From an uncultured Gemmatimonadales bacterium (lineage in GTDB: Bacteria > Gemmatimonadota > Gemmatimonadetes > Gemmatimonadales > GWC2-71-9), in NCBI GenBank assembly GCA_963793205.1, contig CAWBZM010000003.1, positions 218,193-282,192 on the forward strand: 64,000 nt of DNA. Direction: 5' to 3'. The number at the start of each line of letters is the position of its first letter. The first letter of the stretch is position 1. The translations under genes were made by a program, and so were the position numbers. The notes beneath the pieces are model-generated. The model saw nothing but the letters and a program-made list of their open reading frames with translations. It made no database searches and was not told the origin of the DNA. Positions 136 through 62,695 of this stretch are shown here, one piece after another.

Positions 136-219
136 GGGAACGGGGGACGGGGAACGGGAGTGAGGCCATCCCCACCGCCTCCCTCTTCCCCGTTCCCTCT
201 CCCCGTTCCCACTTCCCTG
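136..219. repeat. hairpin microsatellite element A (GGGGAAC-type arms plus conserved core)
   Basis: G-rich arm 136-159 (GGGAACG-like units), loop 160-180 carrying the reverse complement of GGAGGCGGTGGGGATGGCCTC, C-rich arm 181-219 (CCCGTTCCC-like units). It ends 2 nt from the dut stop codon. Confidence 0.8.
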
Positions 220-9897: not shown

Positions 9898-10862
9898 GCG
9901 GCCCCCACGGGGGCAACGGTCAGGTCGCGGAACAGGTCTTCGAGACTCCCCGCCTCCTGATGCAGTTCGTACAGCGTCCAACCCGAGGCAGCCGCCAGCT
10001 GAAAGATCGCCGGCCGCAGATCGGTGGTCGCCAGCGCGGTGATCCGCACCCGGGTACGGGCCTCCCCCAACGGGGCCAGCTCCGATGCCGGACCCGGCGC
10101 CGGCTCGACGGCCGTTACCCCGGCCAGCGCCACGAGCCGCTCCATCACCTGCGCCCCCGCCGCCTCGACCAGGATGTGCACCTGGCCGCCGGCGCGGCTC
10201 ACCAGCTCATCCACCGGGCCATCCGCCGCCAGGTTGCCGCGATTGATGATGAGCAGCCGGGTGCAGACGTGCTGTACCTCGGACAGGATGTGGGTTGAGA
10301 GCAGCACCGTGCGCGCCTGCCCCAGCGCCCCGATCAGGCGCCGGATCTCCACCCGCTGATTGGGGTCGAGCCCTTCGGTGGGCTCGTCGAGCACCAGCAG
10401 ATCAGGTTCATGGAGAATGGCGGCGGCCAGTCCAACCCGCTGACGGTATCCCTTCGAGAGCTCACCAATCGGGCGGTTGTACACTCCTTCGATACCCGTG
10501 GCGAGCACCGCACTGTCAGTCCCGCGGGCGAGGGCAGCCTTGTCCATATCCCGCAGGCGGCCGATGAACGCCAGGTACTCCGTGACCAGCATTTCGGAGT
10601 ACAACGGGTTGTTCTCCGGGAGATAGCCCACCCGTCGTTTGGCCTCACTGCCCGCCTCGGTGAGTGGGACACCGTCGAACAGAATCCGGCCATCATCCGG
10701 CTCATGATACTGGGTGATCATGCGCATGGTGGTGGACTTGCCCGCCCCGTTCGGGCCGAGGAACCCCACGACCTGCCCCCGATCGACGGAGAACGAGACG
10801 CGATTCACGGCCGTCACGCTGCCGTATCGCTTGGTGACACCCTCGAGCGACAGAAGAGTCAT
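9894..10862 (-). CDS. ABC transporter ATP-binding protein
   Basis: Walker A GPNGAGKST, signature LSKGYRQR, Walker B LLVLDEP. Confidence 0.92.
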   Translation of the reverse strand: MTLLSLEGVTKRYGSVTAVNRVSFSVDRGQVVGFLGPNGAGKSTTMRMITQYHEPDDGRILFDGVPLTEAGSEAKRRVGYLPENNPLYSEMLVTEYLAFIGRLRDMDKAALARGTDSAVLATGIEGVYNRPIGELSKGYRQRVGLAAAILHEPDLLVLDEPTEGLDPNQRVEIRRLIGALGQARTVLLSTHILSEVQHVCTRLLIINRGNLAADGPVDELVSRAGGQVHILVEAAGAQVMERLVALAGVTAVEPAPGPASELAPLGEARTRVRITALATTDLRPAIFQLAAASGWTLYELHQEAGSLEDLFRDLTVAPVGAA

Positions 10863-28563: not shown

Positions 28564-28745
28564 GGGTACGCGGGTACGCGGGTAGGCGGGTACGTGGGTA
28601 CGCGGGTACGTGGGTACGTGGGTACGTGGGTACGTGGGTACGCGGGTACGTGGGTACGTGGGTAGACTAAAAGCGAAGGGAGAGATCCGTGAGGACCTCC
28701 CCCTTCCTGCGTAGCTACCCGCGTACCAACCTACCCCCGTACCGC
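28564..28745. repeat. hairpin microsatellite element B (8-mer GGGTACGY)
   Basis: About 13 tandem GGGTACGY units at 28564-28665. The loop has its own stem GAAGGGAGAG/CTCCCCCTTC. Degenerate reverse-complement units at 28709-28745 run directly into the rpsA stop codon. Confidence 0.85.
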
Positions 28746-42585: not shown

Positions 42586-43452
42586 GCCCGTCCCTCGCGC
42601 CCCGCCAGGTCGCCCCAACTGAGCTTCTGCCGCATCCGGGTGAAGTAGCCCTCTTCACCGATCCGCACCAGCAGCACCGACGAGGGCGATCGCCGGATGA
42701 AGACCCGGTCGCCCGCCGCCAGGGTGGTTCCAAGCTGCCCATCGTAGGAGACCAGCAGGTCGTCGTGCGCCGGCGACATCGGCTCGGCGCAGATCGTCAT
42801 CGTCGCGGGGACCACGAGAGGCCGCACCGCCAGGGTGTGGGCGCACACCGGTGTGACGATCATGGCCTGGACGCCGGGTGCAACGATCGGCCCACCGGCG
42901 GACAGCGAATAGGCGGTCGACCCGGTGGGACTCGCGACCACCAGGCCATCGGAGCTGTAGGGGCCGAGGTCGTCGCCATCGATGGTGAGGCGGATGCGGA
43001 TGATGCGGGCGACGCCGGACTTGTGGATGACGACGTCGTTGAGCGCCTGCTGCTCGGAGCGGACGGCCCCGGTGTCGCTCACGATGGTCGCGTGGAGCAC
43101 CAGTCGGCGCTCCAGCACGTAGCTCCCGGAGGTCAGCGCCTCGAGGGCGGTCCGCAGCTGATCGCGGGTGGCCGTGGTGAGGAAGCCGACGCGCCCGAGG
43201 TTGACCCCCAGGATCGGCACCTCGCGGCCGCGAAGCAGGCGGGCGCCCCGGAGCAGGGTCCCATCGCCGCCGCAGGTGATGAGCGCGTCCGGCACGTCCT
43301 CGTCCAGCAGCGGCAAGCGGCCGCTCCCAGAGCGGAACGAGGCTCGGTTCGGTGAGCAGCTCCACGCCGCAGGTCGGCGCCAGTTCCGCCAGCTCCCACA
43401 GGACGGTGCGGAGATCGGCGTATCGTGGATTTCCGACAACGCCGACCTTCAT
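42582..43452 (-). pseudogene. nadK: NAD kinase, one frameshift as sequenced
   Basis: MKVGVVGNPRYADL...WERPL is in one frame and PLLDEDVPDALITCGGDGTLL onward in another. One extra G near 43313-43316. The ATG at 43452 overlaps the dxs stop. Confidence 0.85.
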
Positions 43453-45348
43453 CGTGCCTCGATGCTCTCCTCGCTGTGCAGCGCGCGCAGACGCCGGGCG
43501 ATCCCACCGGCGGACAATCCGCAATTCTCCAGCTGGTCATTGCGCGGCGCCTGCTCGATCAGCCGATCGGGCAGACCGAGCGCGACGGTGCGCACTTCGG
43601 GGTGGGTGGTCTGCAGCGTCTCGGCGAGGTAGGCGCCGAACCCGTTCACGATGGTGCCTTCCTCGACCGTCACCAGCGTCGAATGCTGCGCGGCGAGCAC
43701 CTCGAGCAACGCACTGTCCAGCGGCTTGAGGAACCGGCAATTGACCACGGTGCAGTCGATCCCCTCGGCCGCCAGCTGGTTGGCCGCTTCGAGGCTGGGA
43801 CCGACCATCGTGCCCACCGCCAGCAGGGCCACGTCCTTCCCCTGCCGCAACGTCTCCCAGGTGCCGTATGGCACCGCAGGGACCTCGGCCACCGGACGCG
43901 GCTCGCTGGGTGTCTTGTCCCGGGGATAGCGGGTGCAGAACGGCCCGCCCTTGTGGACCAGGGCGGTCTTCAACAGGCCGATGAGTTCGTCCGCATCGCG
44001 CGGGGCGGTCACGGTCATGCCCGGCACCGCCAGCATATAGGCGATATCGTACAGCCCCATGTGGGTCTGGCCATCTTCACCCACGAGGCCGGCCCGGTCC
44101 ATCGCGAAAATCACGGGCAGATACTGCACCGCGATATCGTGGATGACGTTATCGTAGGCCCGCTGCAGGAAGGTGCTGTAGATCGCGCAGACTGGGCCGG
44201 ATGCCCTGGGTGGCGAGGCCGCCGGCGAAGGTCACCGCGTGACCCTCGGCGATGCCAACATCGAAGAAGCGCTCGGGAAACTTCTTCTGGAAGATGTTGG
44301 TGCCGGTCCCGCTGGGCATGGCGGCGGTGATCACCACCATCTCGGGATGCTCGGCGGCCAGGGCGGTGAGCGTGTCCCCGAATACCTGAGTCCAGGTCGG
44401 CGGACCGCTGGCCTTCTTGCGCGGCTCGCCGGTTTCGGGATCGTAGGCGGCGAGGCCGTGCCACTTCTCCTTGTTGGCCTCGGCGAGGGGGAAGCCCTTG
44501 CCCTTCTGGGTCATCACATGGATGACCCGCGGGCCGGTCATCGGCTTCACGAAGCGGAAGGTGTCCACCAGCTTCTTGAGATCGTGGCCGTCGATCGGGC
44601 CGAAATAGCGGAATCCCAGTTCCTCGAAGAACATCCCGTCCGAGAAGAGATTCTTGGCGCTCTCCTCCAGGTTCTTGGCGAATTCGACCAGCTCCGGACC
44701 CAGCACCTTGCCGAGCTTGAGGGTCCAGTGCTTGATGTGCTCGCGCATCCGGTTGGTCACCGGACTCGCCGCGATGCCGCCCAGGGTCTTGCTGATGGCG
44801 CCGACGTTGGGCGAGATGGACATCCCGTTGTCGTTGACGATCAGGATGATGTCGCGGTTGGAATGCCCGGCGTTGTTCATCCCCTCATAGGAGAGGCCAC
44901 AGGTCAGTGCGCCGTCGCCCACGATCGCCACGACCTTGTTGCGTTCGCCCTTGAGGTCCCGGGCGGTCGCCATGCCCAGCGCGGCCGACATCGCGGTGCC
45001 CGCGTGTCCCGCGCCGAAATGGTCGTGCTCGCTTTCCTCAATCTTGAGAAAGCCGGAGATCCCGCCCGTCTGGCGCAGGGTGGGAAATCGATCGTTGCGG
45101 CCGGTGAGGAGCTTCCAGGCATAGGCCTGGTGGCCGACATCCCACACCACCTTGTCGCGCGGCGAGTCGAATTCATACAGCAGCGCAATCGACAGCTCCA
45201 CGACGCCGAGGCTGGCGCCGATGTGCCCGCCGGTCTGCGACACGCAATCGATCAGGCGATCCCGGACTTCCTGGGCGAGCTGGGGCAGCTGCTCGCGCGG
45301 GATCCGCTTCAGGTCGTCGGGCGACTGGATGGACGAGAGGAGGGTCAT
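43449..45348 (-). pseudogene. dxs: 1-deoxy-D-xylulose-5-phosphate synthase, one frameshift as sequenced
   Basis: N-terminal 380 aa and the C-terminal 226 aa ORF join as ...GLATQGIRP|VCAIYSTFLQRAYDNVIHDIA if one base near 44190-44195 is removed. Confidence 0.88.
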
Positions 45349-46544: not shown

Positions 46545-47683
46545 TCGGGCTCCACCCGGGCAGGGACGGTGCCATCAGCGAGACGCAGGCGAAAGGGTCT
46601 GCCAACGGGGAAATCTGGGCGGCGGCGCAGCACCCCGCCATCCTCGCCCAGTGCCACACTATAGCCGCGCTCCAGCACCCGCAGGGGCGACAACGCGTCC
46701 AGTTGGGCCGCATAGCGTTCGAGGTCGCGCCGGTGCCGCTCCAGTCGCTGGTCGAGCGCACCCTGCAACCGATCCCCGGTCCGGGCCAGTCGTTCGCGCG
46801 CCAGGCGGGTGCCGCGTCCGAGTGCGTTGCCGAGACGAAGTCCCAGCGAGGCCACCTGGCGACGGAAATCGGCGGCGTCGGGCACCGCCAGCTCCATCGC
46901 GGCGGAGGGCGTGGCGGCCCGGATATCGGCAATCAGGTCGGTGAGCAGGAGATCGGTCTCGTGTCCCACGGCGGAAATGGTCGGAATGCGGAGGGCAGCG
47001 AGCGCCCGGCACACTCCTTCGTGGTTGAAAACGGCCAGATCTTCGCGGGCACCACCGCCCCGGGCCAGCACGCAGAGGTCGAGCCCCTCATAGCGGTTGA
47101 CGCGTCCAAGGGCCCGGATCATCTCCTGCGGCGCCTCGGCACCCTGGACGCGGGTGCCGAAGACCAGGAGCTCGACCGAAGACCACCGGCGGCGCGCCAC
47201 GGTCATGATATCCCGCAGTGCCGCGCCATCGAGGCTGGTGACGATCGCGATCCGGTTGGGGACCTGGGGCAGCGGGCGCTTGCGGTCGATGTCGAACAGG
47301 CCATCCTTGGCGAGCGCCTCCCGGATCCGCCGCAGCGCGAGTTCCGCGGCGCCGGTTTTATCGGTGACCAGCAGCTCCGAGACCGTCAGCCGAAACTCGC
47401 CCCGTTCCTCCCAGAGCGTCGGCGTGCCGTAAATGAAAACCTGGCTGCCCTCCTCTGGCGGAGTCTTGTAGCGCTGGGCCTGAGTGCGCCACATCACGCA
47501 GCGTATCTGGGCCCCCGCGTCGCCCAGAGTGAAGTACCAGTGGCCACTGCGATACACCTTGAGACCGCTCATCTCTCCGCGGATCCAGAGCGGGCCGATG
47601 CCCTGCTCCACCGCGCGCCGAGCCGCCCGGGCAAGTTGCGTCGGGGTCCACGGATTCTGGGAGAAGAGATCGGGCTCGGGCAT
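46541..47683 (-). CDS. xseA: exodeoxyribonuclease VII large subunit
   Basis: OB-fold N-terminus, then VTSLDGAALRD, ARGGG, ISAVGHETD motifs. Confidence 0.9.
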   Translation of the reverse strand: MPEPDLFSQNPWTPTQLARAARRAVEQGIGPLWIRGEMSGLKVYRSGHWYFTLGDAGAQIRCVMWRTQAQRYKTPPEEGSQVFIYGTPTLWEERGEFRLTVSELLVTDKTGAAELALRRIREALAKDGLFDIDRKRPLPQVPNRIAIVTSLDGAALRDIMTVARRRWSSVELLVFGTRVQGAEAPQEMIRALGRVNRYEGLDLCVLARGGGAREDLAVFNHEGVCRALAALRIPTISAVGHETDLLLTDLIADIRAATPSAAMELAVPDAADFRRQVASLGLRLGNALGRGTRLARERLARTGDRLQGALDQRLERHRRDLERYAAQLDALSPLRVLERGYSVALGEDGGVLRRRPDFPVGRPFRLRLADGTVPARVEPE

Positions 47684-47817
47684 GGAGACGGGGGACGGGA
47701 ACGGGGAACAGGGAACAGGGAACGGGGAACGGGGAACGGGGAACGGGGAACGGCTCGGAGGTTGGGGGATTGCCGAGTCGCCACCCTGTCCCCGTTCCCC
47801 CTTCCCTGTTCCCCGCA
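47684..47817. repeat. hairpin microsatellite element C (GGGGAAC-type arms plus conserved core)
   Basis: About 10 G-rich heptamer units at 47684-47753 start directly after the xseA ATG complement. Loop stem CTCGG/CCGAG encloses AGGTTGGGGGATTG. C-rich arm at 47787-47817 ends 2 nt from the folD stop. Confidence 0.85.
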
Positions 47818-47819
47818 GT

Positions 47820-48701
47820 TCACATCTTCTGTTTCAGGGCCTGCAGCGTGTTGGCGAGCAGCATCGCGATGGTCATCGGACCGACGCCGCCCGGGACTGG
47901 AGTGATGGCAGAGGCAATCGCGGCCACCGGTTCGTACGCGACATCGCCGGTGAGGCGATAGCCGCGCGGCCGTGAGGCATCGTCCACGCGATTGATGCCA
48001 ACATCGATAACCACCGCGCCGGGACGGACCATGTCGGCGGTGACAAACTCCGCCTTGCCGATCGCGGCGATGAGGATGTCGGCGGTGCGGGCGACTGCAG
48101 GGAGGTCGCGGGTGCGGGAATGGCAGACCGTCACCGTGGCATCGCCGCCAGCGCCGGTCTGAATCAGCAGATTGGCCATCGGCTTGCCGACGATGGTGCT
48201 GCGCCCGATGACGACGGCGTGTGCTCCCCTGGTCTCGATCCCGTTCCGGATCAGCATCTGCTGGACGCCATAGGGCGTGCAGGGCCGGAGGGCGGTCGGG
48301 TCACCAATGACGAGCTTGCCGACGTTCACCGGATGGAACCCGTCGACATCCTTCGCGGGGTCGACCCGCAGCAGCACCTTCTCGGTGTTGATGTGCTTGG
48401 GCAGCGGCAACTGCACCAGGATACCGTGAATCGCCGGATCGTGATTCAGGCCATCGATGATGGCGAGGAGATCGGCTTCATTGATCTCGGCCGGACGCTC
48501 GATCTTGACCGAGTGCATCCCGGCCTCGAGGCAGGCCTTCTCCTTACTGCCGACATACGCCTTGGATGCAGGGTTTTCCCCCACCAGGACGACAGCGAGG
48601 CCGGGCCGGACCCCTTTCGCCGCGAGCACGCGGCACTCCGCGGTGACTTCCTCCCGAATGGTCTTGCCGAGGGCGACGCCATCGATGATCCGAGCACTCA
48701 T
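47820..48701 (-). CDS. folD: bifunctional methylenetetrahydrofolate dehydrogenase/cyclohydrolase
   Basis: Full-length FolD ([32 protein letters not shown]). Confidence 0.93.
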
Positions 48702-55882: not shown

Positions 55883-55920
55883 AAAAGAAAACCGGACACC
55901 CTGATTCCCCTGGGGTGTCC
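55883..55920 (-). terminator. intrinsic terminator/attenuator immediately upstream of infC
   Basis: Minus strand reads GGACACCC-CAGGGGAATCA-GGGTGTCC followed by GGTTTTCTTTT. This is the only canonical hairpin-plus-U-tract I found in the window. Confidence 0.7.
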
Positions 55921-56049
55921 GGCAACAGAGGTGCGACGCTGCGGCGCCACACCAGACCAACTCTCTGTCTGCAGGACCCGGTGGCACCGGCGGAGACTGC
56001 CCGGGCGCTGGGGTGGGGGCCATCGGCCCCACTTCATTGAACGGGGGCA

Positions 56050-56078
56050 AAGCTAGCCACAGGCAGGGGTTTAGACAA
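56050..56078 (-). promoter_or_regulatory. putative sigma70-type promoter of the infC-rpmI-rplT leader
   Basis: Minus-strand TTGTCT (56078-56073), 17 nt spacer, TAGCTT (56055-56050). Confidence 0.4.
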
Positions 56079-56087
56079 GCCTGAGGT

Positions 56088-56324
56088 GGGGAACGGGGAA
56101 CGGGGGAGCCGCCCGGAGGTCAGGGGATTGCTTCGTCGGCCGCAAGCGGCCTCCTCGCAATGACAGCAGAACCGCCAGCCCGTTCCCTTTTCCCCGTTCC
56201 CCGTTCCCCGTTCCCCGTTCCCCGTTCCCTCTTCCCCGTTCCCCGTTCCCTTTTTCCCGTTCCCCGTTCCCTCTTCCCCGTCCCGTTCCCTTCCCGTTCC
56301 CCGTTCCCCGTTCCCTCTTCCCCG
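56088..56324. repeat. hairpin microsatellite element D (GGGGAAC-type, strongly asymmetric arms, conserved core)
   Basis: About 3 GGGGAAC units at 56088-56106. A 72 nt structured loop contains CCGGAGGTCAGGGGATTGC. About 21 CCCGTTC-type units at 56179-56324 run directly into the MBL hydrolase stop codon. Confidence 0.88.
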
Positions 56325-57235
56325 TTACCCGGCCTTGGCCACCACCTCGGCCAGCCCGATCCCCTTCCCCTCCGCCACCACCCGCCCCATCGCGACCTCG
56401 GGGTCATGCTCGAAAATGAACCGCCAGCCCCCGCGAACCGCCTCGGCCAGCAGTGTCCGCTTCGTTTCCAGGGTCCGGAGCGGCTCCAGGTCGTAGCCCA
56501 TGATGTAGGGCAGCGGCAGGTGGGCCGAGGTTGGGATGATGTCGCCCAGAAACACCGCGGTCTCGCCGCCACTGCGGACGACGATGCTCTGGTGCCAGGG
56601 CACGTGCCCCGGGGTCATCATCGCCGAGATGCCCGGCAGAATTTCGCCCGGCCCATCAAGCAGCTTCCACTTCCCGGCGGCCGCGATCGGCTCGAAGTTG
56701 GGCGGCAGATAGCTGGCCCGGGTCCGCTCATTGGTATGGCGGGCGAACTCGAGCTCGTTCTGCTGCACGACGTAGGTGGCGTTGGCAAACGCCGGCGAGG
56801 GTCCAGGGTCGAGTCAGCGGCTGCGCGTCGGCTCGGCGGCTCGGCGGCCACCGTGTTCCCCCCGGCATGATCAAAGTGCAGGTGGGTGTTGATCACCTAT
56901 CGGACGTCATCGGGCTGATGCCCCGCCTCCCGAATGGCGTCCTCCAGCTGGGTCGGCCCGGGAGCGCCGCCATTCCTGACGCCGTAGATCTGGAGGAACT
57001 TCTCGTCCTCCTTGTTGCCCAGACCGGTATCGACCAGGACCAGCCCATCCGGATGCTCGATCAGCAGGCAGCGCATCGCGAGCGGAATGCGGTTCTTCTC
57101 ATCCGGCGCCATCCGCCTGGACCAGAGCGGCTTGGGGACGACGCCGAACATGGCGCCGCCATCGAGCCGCTGAGCGCCTCCTTCCAGGAGGTGGCAGCGG
57201 AGTGCGCCGAGCTGAAAGGTCCGAATCAGAGCCAT
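56325..57235 (-). pseudogene. MBL-fold metallo-hydrolase, in-frame TAG plus frameshift as sequenced
   Basis: N-terminal 112 aa ORF ends DDVR-TAG and continues in the same frame as VINTHLHFDHAGGNT. A frameshift between about 56770 and 56850 leads to the C-terminal ORF (FANATYVVQQNELEF...TPGHVPWHQ). Confidence 0.8.
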
Positions 57236-59383: not shown

Positions 59384-59577
59384 CGCAGATTACACATCGT
59401 CCGCAGATGGCGCAGATGACGCAGATGAGCGCAGATGAGCGATCAGATGAGCGCAGATGACGCAGATGACGCAGATGACGCAGATGACACAGATGGCGCA
59501 GATGACGCAGATGGCGCAGATCGCGCAGACTGAAGCTAGATGGCGCAGATTAGTCTGCGCCATCTGCGTCATCTGTG
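59384..59577. repeat. hairpin microsatellite element E (9-mer CGCAGATGR)
   Basis: About 15 tandem CGCAGATGR units. Perfect 12 bp terminal hairpin AGATGGCGCAGA-TTAG-TCTGCGCCATCT at 59538-59565, plus a further inverted unit. Ends 4 nt from the rex stop. Confidence 0.85.
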
Positions 59578-59581
59578 GACC

Positions 59582-60207
59582 CTAGCGGTTGGTCAGCGCG
59601 TAGCTCAGCGTCTCCAGCTCCAGGGCCAGGTTCACGTTCTTCACCGACGACATCGTCGGGCACATCGAGCTGCACCGGGGCAAAATTGAGAATCGCCTTG
59701 ACCCCGGCGTGCACCAGCCGTGTCGGCCAGGGCCTGCGCCGCCTCGGCCGGGGTCACCAGCACGGCGATATCCACCGGGTGTGCCGCTGAGCTCGCCTTC
59801 CAGGTCCCTCACGTCGCGGACGGTGAGGCCATTCCAGTGCTTGCCCGATCTTCCCGCGGTCGGCGTCGAAGATCGCGACGATCTCGAATCCCCGCTGCTT
59901 GAACCCGCGGTACTGGACCAGGGCGCTGCCGATCTTCCCCGCCCCGATCATCGCCACCCGGTAACTGCCGTCGCAGGCCGAGGATTTCCCGCAGTCGACG
60001 CACCAGCTCGGGCACCGCGTAGCCCAATCCCCGTTTGCCGAACGAGCCGAAGAAGGACAGATCCTTCCGGACCTGGGCGGAGGTCGTCCCGCCGCGAGCG
60101 GCGAGCGCCTCGGAGCTGACCGTTTCCCGCCCCTCCTCTTCGAATTCTTCGAGGAAGCGCAGGTAGAGGGACAGACGGCGGACGGTGGACTCGGCGATCT
60201 TGCGCAT
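59582..60207 (-). pseudogene. rex: redox-sensing transcriptional repressor Rex, multiple frameshifts as sequenced
   Basis: N-terminal winged helix (STVRRLSLYLRFL...AQVRKDLSFFGSFGKRGLGY), Rossmann segment MIGAGKIGSALV and C-terminal VKNVNLALELETLSYAL lie in different frames. Confidence 0.75.
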
Positions 60208-60212
60208 CGGTT

Positions 60213-60230
60213 TTGTGAAAGATTTCACAA
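60213..60230 (-). promoter_or_regulatory. Rex operator (ROP box)
   Basis: TTGTGAA-ATCT-TTCACAA on the minus strand matches the TTGTGAAnnnnTTCACAA consensus exactly. It ends 5 nt upstream of the rex ATG. Confidence 0.8.
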
Positions 60231-60272
60231 ATCTAGCCGCAAGCCGACGCGCCGGAGGTCAGGGGAAGGGAT

Positions 60273-61053
60273 TCAGCCGCGGGGTGTCGAGGCCTGAAAC
60301 AGGCGGACGAATCTGGGGTGGTGCGAGCTCTTCGGCCGGGTGGCGGGGAGAGTCTCCGCCTGGGCGAGCCACCCGCCGACCGTCGCCGGCTCGGCCCGGT
60401 CAGTTCCCGGAGTCCCCGCATCAGCTGCTTGCGCCGGAAGCCGAAGAGTCCCACCACCAAGCGCCGGAAGGGGAGCACTTCGCGTCCGGCGATGAGGGGC
60501 TCCGCCAGCGGCGTCAGCCGTAGCACCGCCGAGTCCACCCTGGGCGGCGGGCGGAAGGCGCCGGCCGGGACCGTGAAGAGCCGCTCCACCCGGGCCACGG
60601 CCTGGACGCCGACGGTCAGGGCGCCGTAGTCGCTGCCGCCGGGAGCGCGCCGCAACCCGGTCCGCCACTTCCTTCTGCACCAGGAAGACGATGCGGCGCG
60701 GCCGCGGCGGCCGGAGCGCCTGGTCGAGCAGCGGCGACGTGATGTTGTAGGGGATGTTGCCGGCGACCGCGACCGGCCCCGGCCCCGCCAGCGCGTGCCA
60801 GTCCACCTCGAGCGCATCGCCCTCGACGAGTTCCAGCCGGGGGAACCGGCGCCGCAGCTCCGGCACCAGGTCGCGGTCCTTCTCGATCGCGATGAGCCGA
60901 CCCGCGCCCTGCGTACAGCTGGGCGGTAGGCCGCCCGGTCCCGGCCCGATTTCCAGCACGGTGTCGCCCGGTGCGGGCTCCAGCGCGCCCGCGATCCGGC
61001 GCAGGAGGTTGGGATCGCGCAAGAAAATGCTGGCCGAGGGATTTCTTGGGCAT
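60273..61053 (-). pseudogene. rsmA: 16S rRNA (adenine1518/1519-N6)-dimethyltransferase, multiple frameshifts as sequenced
   Basis: MPKKSLGQHFL, then RDPNLLRRIAGAL...VLEIGPGPGGL, NIPYNITSPLL, FLVQKEVADR and PPPRVDSAVLRL are spread over three frames. Confidence 0.75.
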
Positions 61054-61125
61054 GGAACCAATGTATCAGGGGCGGCTCGGCGGCTCGGCGAGCAGAGTAG
61101 CCTGCCTGCTTCCCTACTGGCGGAG

Positions 61126-62695
61126 TCACCGATCCGCAATCACCAGCAGCGTCCGGTCGTCCATCGGCTTGATCTCGGCCGCATCGGCTTCGGCGAAGAC
61201 CGCCCCGACGATCGCCTCCGGGCGTCAGATGGCGGCGGCAGGCGATTTCGCGCAGGAGCCGCTCCTCGGTAAAGGCACCGCCGCGTTCCCTGCTCCACCA
61301 GGCCGTCGGTCCAGAGACAGAGCAGGTCGTGCTCGGCGTTCCACGGCGACCTGCTGCAAGCCGATACTCTCCGCCGTGGCCAGTCCGAGGGGTGGGGCGG
61401 TGACGGCCAGCCGCTCCGGCGTCCCCACTCTGCGGAATCCGGAAGGCGTGCGGGTGGCCGGCGCTGGCGTAGGTCAGCCGCTCGTTGCGGGGATCCAGGA
61501 CGCCGTAGAACACGCGACAGGAACATCTCGGTGGAGGCCAGTTCGTCGCCGAGGCTGTCGAGCAGCGACGACCAGCGTCTCATCGGGGGTGTTCGAGCTG
61601 CCGGCGTGAATCCCGCCGGCGGACATGACCAGCGCCATGACCAGCGCGGCGGAGAAGCCGTGGGATGAGACGTCGCCCAGCATGACCCCCACCCGGCCGT
61701 CCCGAGCCGAGTGAAGGTGTAGAAGTCGCCGCCGACGCTGTCCGCCGGTCGGCAGATCGCGCGCCACGTCGGCATCGCCCTGCAGGACGACCGGCGAGGG
61801 CAGGAGGTTGAGCTGGAGGTCGTGGGCCAGTTCCAGCTCGCGCTGCAGCCGCTGCGGCGCACATCGCGCGCGACCAGCCGGGCGTTCTCGATGGCGGCGC
61901 CGATCTGGTTGGCCACGGCGGTGACCAGCTTGGCCTGCGAGGGGGTGAAGCTGTCGCCCCCCAGGCGGTCGGTGAGGTTGATGACGCCGACGCAGCGGGA
62001 CCCGGCGCCCGGGCGCGGCGTACTGGATCGGGATGCTGAGGAAGGCCTGGCCGCGGTAGCCGCGCTCGGTGGTCGTGCCGGGGTTCTGGGCCAGCCGGTC
62101 GGCGGGATCGTTGACGATGATGCGCCGCTCGCGGAACACCCGGGCCGCCACCGAGGCCCGATCGTCCACCGGCACCGGGAGCATGCCGCCGTGCGAGAAT
62201 CCGCGGGCGGCGACGGTCCGCAGCAGGCCCGGTCTCCTCGTCGTGCACCATGATCGAGGCCCGCCGCGCGCCGACCACATCGGCCACTTCCCGCACGATG
62301 GTCTGGGCCGCTTCCTCCAGCCGGACGGTGTGGCCCAGGATCTCGCTGATGGCGTAGAGGAGGTCGATCTCCTCGTAGCGGCCGGTCAGCTCGTCGGTGA
62401 TCTCCGCCGTTTCCCGCTCGGCGGTGAAGAAGGCAGCGAGAATACCCAGCAGCTGGGGCGACAGTTCGGCGGCGCGGGACTCGGTGACGGCGCCGATCTC
62501 GAGCCAGAAGCCCTGGGCATCGGGCACCGGGGCGAGCCAGGCCGACCCGGTCGGGGTCGGTACCAGGCCGGGCGCGAGAGGAATGGGGGAGAGAAGCCGG
62601 GGTCGATCCCGGCGCCAAAGGCGCGGAGGCCGCGACCGTCGTAGCGCCACAGGCGGACCCGGGCCCCCACCAGGGCGCCGAGGGCATCCGCCACT
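61126..62695 (-). pseudogene. GAF-domain PP2C (SpoIIE/RsbU-type) serine phosphatase, many frameshifts as sequenced
   Basis: GAF-like segment (EEIDLLYAISEILG...), then LELAHDLQLNLLP, SVGGDFY, VMLGDVSSHG, DGLVE and the C-terminal DDRTLLVIADR stop at 61126. The start is approximate. Confidence 0.65.

Follow-up and report, generated by a model that had tools for sequence, protein, structure and literature searches.

Does the short sequence that recurs in the loops of GGGGAAC tandem-array elements of an uncultured Gemmatimonadales bacterium represent a conserved signal, or does it trace back to copying between the elements of a single genome? The original prediction had described four copies of such a core in the window (the whole stretch of 64,000 nucleotides analyzed here), one of them without arrays, and had favored a DNA-level element or protein-binding site over an mRNA signal.

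The window has a G+C content of 64–72% (mean approximately 68%) and carries housekeeping genes, mainly on the minus strand (dut, pnp, rpsB-tsf, rpsA, folD, xseA, dxs, pheST, infC, rex, and rsmA). Several frame changes are required to read rex (59583–60207), rsmA (60273–61139), and dxs (43449–45348). Broken frames of this kind are usual for indel errors in long-read MAG assemblies that have not been corrected, or for pseudogenes; a relative (L174, ENA contig_1963) shows the same fragmentation.

Architecture and placement of the array elements

Three elements, designated E1, E2, and E3, consist of convergent tandem GGGGAAC array pairs around a spacer, and the same architecture is present with units of 8 and 9 nt at two other positions in the window (Table 1). 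The arms of the GGGGAAC elements comprise 2.6, 3.3, 4.3, 5.6, 9.6, or 22.6 units, as determined with TRF. All five array elements fold into long hairpins (z = -4 to -6.7), begin at most 8 nt from the stop codon of the upstream minus-strand gene, and have the G- or purine-rich arm on the 5' side (5:0, 8-mer and 9-mer elements included).

Table 1. Array elements, core copies and related features of the window (positions counted from its first nucleotide).
Feature	Position	Strand	Unit or sequence	Basis or context
E1, whole element	136–217		GGGGAAC	G-rich arm 136–158, spacer, C-rich arm 180–217
E1, doubtful core-like sequence	165–182	-	GGAGGCGGTGGGGATGGC	
8-mer element	28564–28745		GGGTACGY	same architecture; rpsA stop to pccB start; core absent
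E2 (47688–47815), G-rich arm	47688–47753		x 9.6	TRF
E2, core copy	47756–47773	+	CGGAGGTTGGGGGATTGC	spacer of E2
E2, C-rich arm	47784–47815		x 4.3	TRF
E3 (56088–56331), G-rich arm	56088–56105		(GGGGAAC) x 2.6	TRF; inverted repeats
E3, spacer	56106–56178			holds the core and an inner hairpin, GGCCGCAAGCGGCC (56138–56151)
E3, core copy	56113–56131	+	CCGGAGGTCAGGGGATTGC	spacer of E3
E3, C-rich arm	56179–56331		(CCCGTTC) x 22.6, higher-order period 21 nt	TRF
9-mer element	59402–59575		CGCAGATGR	same architecture; downstream of rex stop (59583–59585); core absent
Solo (array-less) core copy	60248–60266	+	CGCGCCGGAGGTCAGGGGA	alignment to E3

E1 is located between the dut stop codon (222–224) and the conserved promoter of mreB, a strong sigma-70-like promoter (TTGCCA-17-TACAAT at 67 to 39, minus strand). 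The G-rich arm of E2 reaches to within 4 nt of the xseA start codon (47681–47683, minus strand), with its C-rich arm ending 5 nt from the folD stop codon (47820–47822), and the C-rich arm of E3 overlaps the TAA stop codon (56325–56327) of a gene for a metallo-beta-lactamase-fold protein. A T-tract or terminator-like site was not found at any array element of the window. The hairpins occupy the positions expected of a terminator or of a stem protecting the 3' end, and a putative role in termination or RNA stability may be assigned to them. Complete termination is impossible at E2 and the 8-mer element, both of which border directly on the next start codon; for E2, an intra-operon hairpin fits its distance to xseA better than a terminator does.

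Units of 7, 8, and 9 nt coexist in the window, and the 9-mer unit is devoid of G-runs. G-quadruplex (G4) formation can therefore not be the common denominator of the elements, which argues that the stem-loop, and not the G4, is the selected feature. A search of the window against Rfam identified tRNA-Leu as the sole family at or above the gathering threshold, with only sub-threshold miRNA-hairpin noise for E2 and E3. The infC leader (55900–56075, minus strand) is conserved in a by-eye alignment with L123 (2720–2860) and L120 (2740–2950) and may correspond to a putative structured IF3/L35/L20 leader; it gave no Rfam match at the gathering threshold.

G4-capable heptameric SSRs have been described for Xanthomonas (GGGAATC) and Nostoc (GGGGAYT) (Rehm et al., 2015, PLoS One 10:e0144275, PMC4692102). 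They are intergenic, mostly between co-directional ORFs, with a G-rich sense-strand array that overlaps the stop codon or lies no more than 50 bp from it; each genome holds 70–75 convergent pairs with one array per strand. The same slot is used in related species with variable length and sequence, and the function was still open in 2015. The window elements resemble these pairs in a G-rich unit of 7 nt containing three or more consecutive Gs, in the close spacing of convergent arrays, in their intergenic position between aligned ORFs with the G-rich sense-strand array at most 8 nt from a stop codon, and in a slot that is kept in relatives while length and sequence vary. They differ from them in unit (GGGGAAC), in phylum (Gemmatimonadota), in the occurrence of 8-mer and 9-mer versions, the latter without G-runs, and in a spacer sequence common to several elements, which is not described there. 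Neither is there a preference for four units, the G4 minimum, as arms range from 2.6 to 22.6 units in a sample too small for a distribution. A literature search on GGGGAAC repeats found nothing relevant, and for GGGAATC the 2015 paper and VNTR-typing uses were the sole results; functional work after 2015 was not among them. The GGGGAAC elements of Gemmatimonadales, with the 8-mer and 9-mer variants, add a new member to a class that had been described before.

Other repeat systems share part of these features. REP and BIME sequences are short extragenic palindromes, enriched directly behind stop codons in co-directional or convergent gene pairs, and are considered to act on mRNA 3' ends; REPs are single imperfect palindromes of 20–40 nt with a conserved 5' GTAG-type head. 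The window elements are likewise palindromic, extragenic and located just after stop codons, but the arms of E1–E3 are tandem arrays lacking a GTAG-like head, and no RAYT, transposase or integrase was identified among the 40 Pfam-scanned ORFs of the window. Intrinsic terminators without a U-tract ('I-shaped') exist in high-GC bacteria. The window elements are similar to these in being GC-rich stem-loops right after a stop codon without a T run, with E1 between a gene end and the next promoter, yet their stems are built of tandem repeats and can exceed 30 bp. Cyanobacterial STRR heptamers are abundant intergenic tandem repeats with a possible post-transcriptional role. The same is reported for the TAACTGA direct repeats of Beggiatoaceae (PMC4679880). 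Unlike in the window elements, the repeats in both groups mostly form direct arrays that lack a complementary partner arm; cyanobacterial loci such as L006, L011, and L029 carry GGGGAAC on one strand only.

Copies of the core in the window

All four sequences of the original prediction are present where it had placed them, and the layout of G-rich arm, core, and C-rich arm that it proposed is right for E1–E3. The consensus given for the core, CGGAGGYNRGGGGAT, occurs exactly only in E2 (47756–47770) and E3 (56114–56128). The array-less copy (60253–60267) deviates from it by one mismatch, and the copy at 165–182 on the minus strand requires a 1-nt indel and is unmatched even when two mismatches are allowed.

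To model chance occurrence, 300 third-order Markov simulations of 64 kb were used. The exact consensus is observed twice against an expectation of 0.01. The pattern GGAGGN3-4GGGGATKGC was found three times (0.003 expected), but is post hoc, as it derives from the same copies. By itself, GGGGATKGC shows no enrichment (4 observed, 2.0 expected), and a relaxed match of the core is also present within coding sequence (56359–56373). In local alignments evaluated against shuffled sequences, the cores of E2 and E3 match at 18/21 positions and those of E3 and the solo copy at 18/19 (p < 0.003 for both), whereas the core-like sequence of E1 showed no significant similarity to E2 or E3. The 15 identical nucleotides reported for the solo copy and E3 were confirmed (BLAST E = 0.005); an exact identity of this length was never reached in the 300 simulations, in which the longest run of the E3 19-mer was 13.

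The GGAGG of E1 is the tail of an array variant, GGGAAGAGGGA(GG), which within the window is found only in E1 and E3. Because GGAGG belongs to this variant, and the remaining GGGGATKGC is not enriched, the E1 copy is doubtful; it is probably a mere compositional look-alike inside an E3-related array. Weak look-alikes of this kind can arise since spacers are G-rich beside the G arm and C-rich beside the C arm. Three copies are therefore robust (E2, E3, and solo) and one is doubtful (E1). The loop of the 8-mer element (28685–28702) had been suggested as a diverged relative of the core; it matches E1 at 11/14 positions with p = 0.01 before correction for approximately 60 tests, and matches neither E2 nor E3, and this relationship is not upheld.

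Closing stems had been proposed for three copies. Those of E1 (GAGGC/GCCTC) and E2 (CGGCTCGG/CCGAGTCG, 47751–47758/47773–47780) are used in the predicted fold, and the latter encloses the centre of the E2 core as a 14-nt apical loop. In E3 the stem GGAGG/CCTCC exists as sequence, but the spacer as a whole folds no better than its shuffles. In E1 and E2, GGT(T)GGGG(G)AT(T)G forms an apical loop of 10–14 nt on closing stems that differ in sequence, which could hint at selection on the loop. The solo copy, for which no closing stem had been found, is indeed unstructured and folds no better than shuffles. It is located 6 nt downstream of the rsmA stop codon (60273–60275, minus strand) and 18 nt before a Rex operator (60213–60230).

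The claim that orientation is independent of transcription depends wholly on the doubtful copy at 165–182. The three robust copies are all on the plus strand, antisense to the minus-strand genes next to them, and orientation thus provides no argument against a role at the RNA level. Inside the window, the view of the core as a non-random repeat linked to GGGGAAC array elements and to gene 3' ends is borne out, and the core behaves as a DNA-level repeat family.

Orthologous slots and other genomes

As a conserved loop motif of GGGGAAC elements, the core does not hold up at orthologous sites, where the array hairpins carry unrelated spacers. In the folD-xseA slot, which holds GGGGAAC units in the window (E2), L123 (FolD identity 90%) has GGGAACC units with an unrelated spacer of 15 nt, and L124 and L125 (90–91%) have GGGAAGC/GGGAAAC units with unrelated spacers of 35–45 nt. 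No array but a different palindromic repeat is present in L120 and L121 (88%). This palindrome, CTGTCATTCCGAGG...CCTCGGGATGACAG, is dispersed after stop codons (L120, 1668–1760 and 10936–11020; same slot in L121).

The dut-mreB slot, with GGGGAAC units in the window (E1), is occupied in the closest relative, L181, by GGGTACGY, the unit of the 28.6-kb element of the window; the 8-mer spacers of the two are unrelated. The identity of L181 to the window is 87% in the aligned coding stretch and 96% in the mreB promoter region. Arms of the GGGCGGGAA type are found in L179 and L180, and GGTCGCCA 8-mers in L178. The mreB promoter region is conserved in L178–L181, with variant hexamers in L178–L180 (TTGTCC; TAGCTT or TACCTT). 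None of the spacers in these slots (folD-xseA in L123–L125; dut-mreB in L178–L181) shows significant similarity to the core. As the orthologous slots keep hairpins with other units, architecture and position persist and both arms change together, while the spacer varies freely. The slots of the relatives show element replacement, not empty sites, and no target-site duplication was seen on inspection of the borders of E1–E3, the arms of which are themselves inverted. In the more distant L174 (74% at the nucleotide level), E3, the 9-mer element and the solo copy are all absent and the Rex operator is kept. This operator is perfect in the window (TTGTGAAAGATTTCACAA, immediately upstream of rex) and reads TTGTGAAACATTTCACAA in L174 (approximately 9973–9990).

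A scan of a genome collection for GGGGAACGGGGAACGGGG yielded at least 119 loci. Among the matches listed, GGGGAAC arrays were found in Gemmatimonadales, Longimicrobium, Rhodanobacteraceae/Xanthomonadales, Kiritimatiellae, Chloroflexota, cyanobacteria, Streptomyces, and others, and the core was present in the spacers of 0/119 of these loci from other genomes. A metagenome scan anchored on the array (GGGAACGG N0-20 GGAGG N3-4 GGGGATKGC) gave 48 matches, none of which is flanked by arrays; most look coding when their flanks are inspected. The association of the core with arrays or gene ends elsewhere, as anticipated by the original prediction, therefore fails outside this genome.

The architecture itself recurs. 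Among the matches listed, pairs with at least three units per arm have the G arm before the C arm in 38 cases and the reverse order in one, where two neighboring elements adjoin. In 25 of the 38 (among the matches listed), an ORF of 100 aa or more ends -9 to 30 nt before a G arm, compared to 17% of random positions. The spacers of 32 elements of other genomes are G-rich beside the G arm and C-rich beside the C arm; GGAGG is present in 5 and GGGGAT in 2 of their 64 strand-views. In Dyella tabacisoli (L019, L110, L116, and L117), a whole GGGGAAC element is dispersed on four scaffolds with 90–96% identity, and its copies have a common A-rich spacer of approximately 90 nt and dissimilar flanks. 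The same architecture, with 8-mer units GGGATTGA/GGGACGGA, is found in a Planctomycetales MAG (L056, 4960–5110), where the start of the spacer, GGGGGGATTGC, is a chance partial look-alike of the core.

Origin of the core and meaning of the hairpins

We consider the core, rather than a conserved signal, to be the inner spacer of a single subfamily of convergent tandem-array hairpins that is specific to this genome and has spread within it through copying or gene conversion (probability roughly 0.6). The core is real yet confined to this genome, and for this reason seems to record a recent transfer of sequence from element to element; the family has two to three members, counted within 64 kb of the source genome. 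A purine- or G-rich array of short units at most 8 nt from a stop codon, a spacer, and a complementary C-rich array would form a long stem-loop in the transcript or in extruded DNA. Slippage would resize the arms, and the stem, rather than its sequence, would be the feature that is maintained. Elements in their slots may turn over fast, being replaced or homogenized from other elements of the same genome, with the repeated arrays as possible substrates for ectopic conversion, since they are perfectly homologous over tens of bases. The spacer segment of approximately 20 nt in E2 and E3 may thus have been copied from one to the other, or into both from a common progenitor, and the solo copy may be a short patch or remnant of core sequence. 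Replacement of the unit type at orthologous sites is observed (folD-xseA and dut-mreB), and the dispersed elements of Dyella tabacisoli can serve, by analogy, as a precedent for the copying of whole elements. The 38:1 chirality with the G-rich arm 5', among the matches listed, is not accounted for by this copying model.

A purely compositional origin, in which spacers decay from G-rich units and look-alikes arise independently, is quite improbable for the core as a whole. The composition of the 32 spacers from other genomes is as this explanation predicts, and so are the array-variant end that supplies the GGAGG of E1, the lack of enrichment of GGGGATKGC, and the relaxed match in coding sequence. 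It cannot, however, explain the 18/21 and 18/19 identities or the exact 15-nt match, and GGAGG and GGGGAT are present in few of the spacer strand-views elsewhere. This rules out chance or composition for E2, E3, and the solo copy; only for E1 is it the likely explanation. The core might instead be a putative sequence-specific DNA site, through which a recombinase, transposase or nucleoid protein recognizes or mobilizes array elements. Its copies are non-random and lie at the apex of potential cruciforms, one is found outside any array, and elements at orthologous sites have given way to other unit types, which is how a mobile element would behave. We nevertheless judge such a site unlikely, given that the core is absent from the orthologous and non-orthologous array elements of the other genomes sampled (among the matches listed), that candidate enzymes are missing from the 40 window ORFs, that target-site duplications were not seen, that the orientation argument relies on the doubtful E1 copy, and that three unit types in one genome argue against a single sequence-specific partner.

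An RNA-level motif has its own points in favor. Read as sense RNA, the core of E2, E3, and the solo copy is GCAAUCCCC(NN)ACCUCCG, a C-rich, anti-Shine-Dalgarno-like apical segment that could pair with GGAGG sequences or serve as a putative recognition loop; the robust copies share one orientation relative to the genes, and the centre of the core is an apical loop with different closing stems in E1 and E2. Against this stand the unstructured E3 spacer and solo copy, which make structure inconsistent between copies, the lack of conservation in relatives, the absence of any Rfam family beyond generic hairpin noise, and a set of three sequences, too few for covariation. We regard this possibility as very improbable. 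Also doubtful, to much the same degree as a compositional origin, is that the core is the recognition or processing site of a putative trans-acting enzyme that copies whole array hairpins to just after stop codons. If true, this would explain why orthologous slots hold different unit types that are present elsewhere in the same genome, as well as the whole-element dispersal in Dyella, and the solo copy beside rsmA would be the footprint of an aborted or excised insertion.

Other candidate origins of the core were rejected. For a tRNA or att site, there is a weak T-arm/acceptor likeness on either strand, without a convincing match among the six tRNAs in the loci and without a tRNA-like Rfam match. 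The tRNA-Leu of the window likewise has GGGGATTGC in its variable arm. For a viral origin, a scan of IMG/VR for CGGAGGTYRGGGGATTGC returned three chance coding matches only. GGGGAAC is a helix-45 loop segment of 16S rRNA, the substrate of RsmA/KsgA, and the solo copy lies right beside rsmA; ACCUCC, part of the core when read as sense RNA, matches the anti-SD of the 16S rRNA 3' end. Mimicry of the 16S rRNA 3' end is probably a coincidence, as the remaining unit types do not agree with it.

The core itself gives no evidence for a new signal and is a genome-specific shared spacer. The convergent array hairpins close to stop codons are found in many phyla, including Gemmatimonadota, Xanthomonadales, and Kiritimatiellae among the matches listed, and they stay in their intergenic slots even as one unit sequence gives way to another. 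Shared spacers such as the core are possible lineage markers, with which the copying of elements could be traced.
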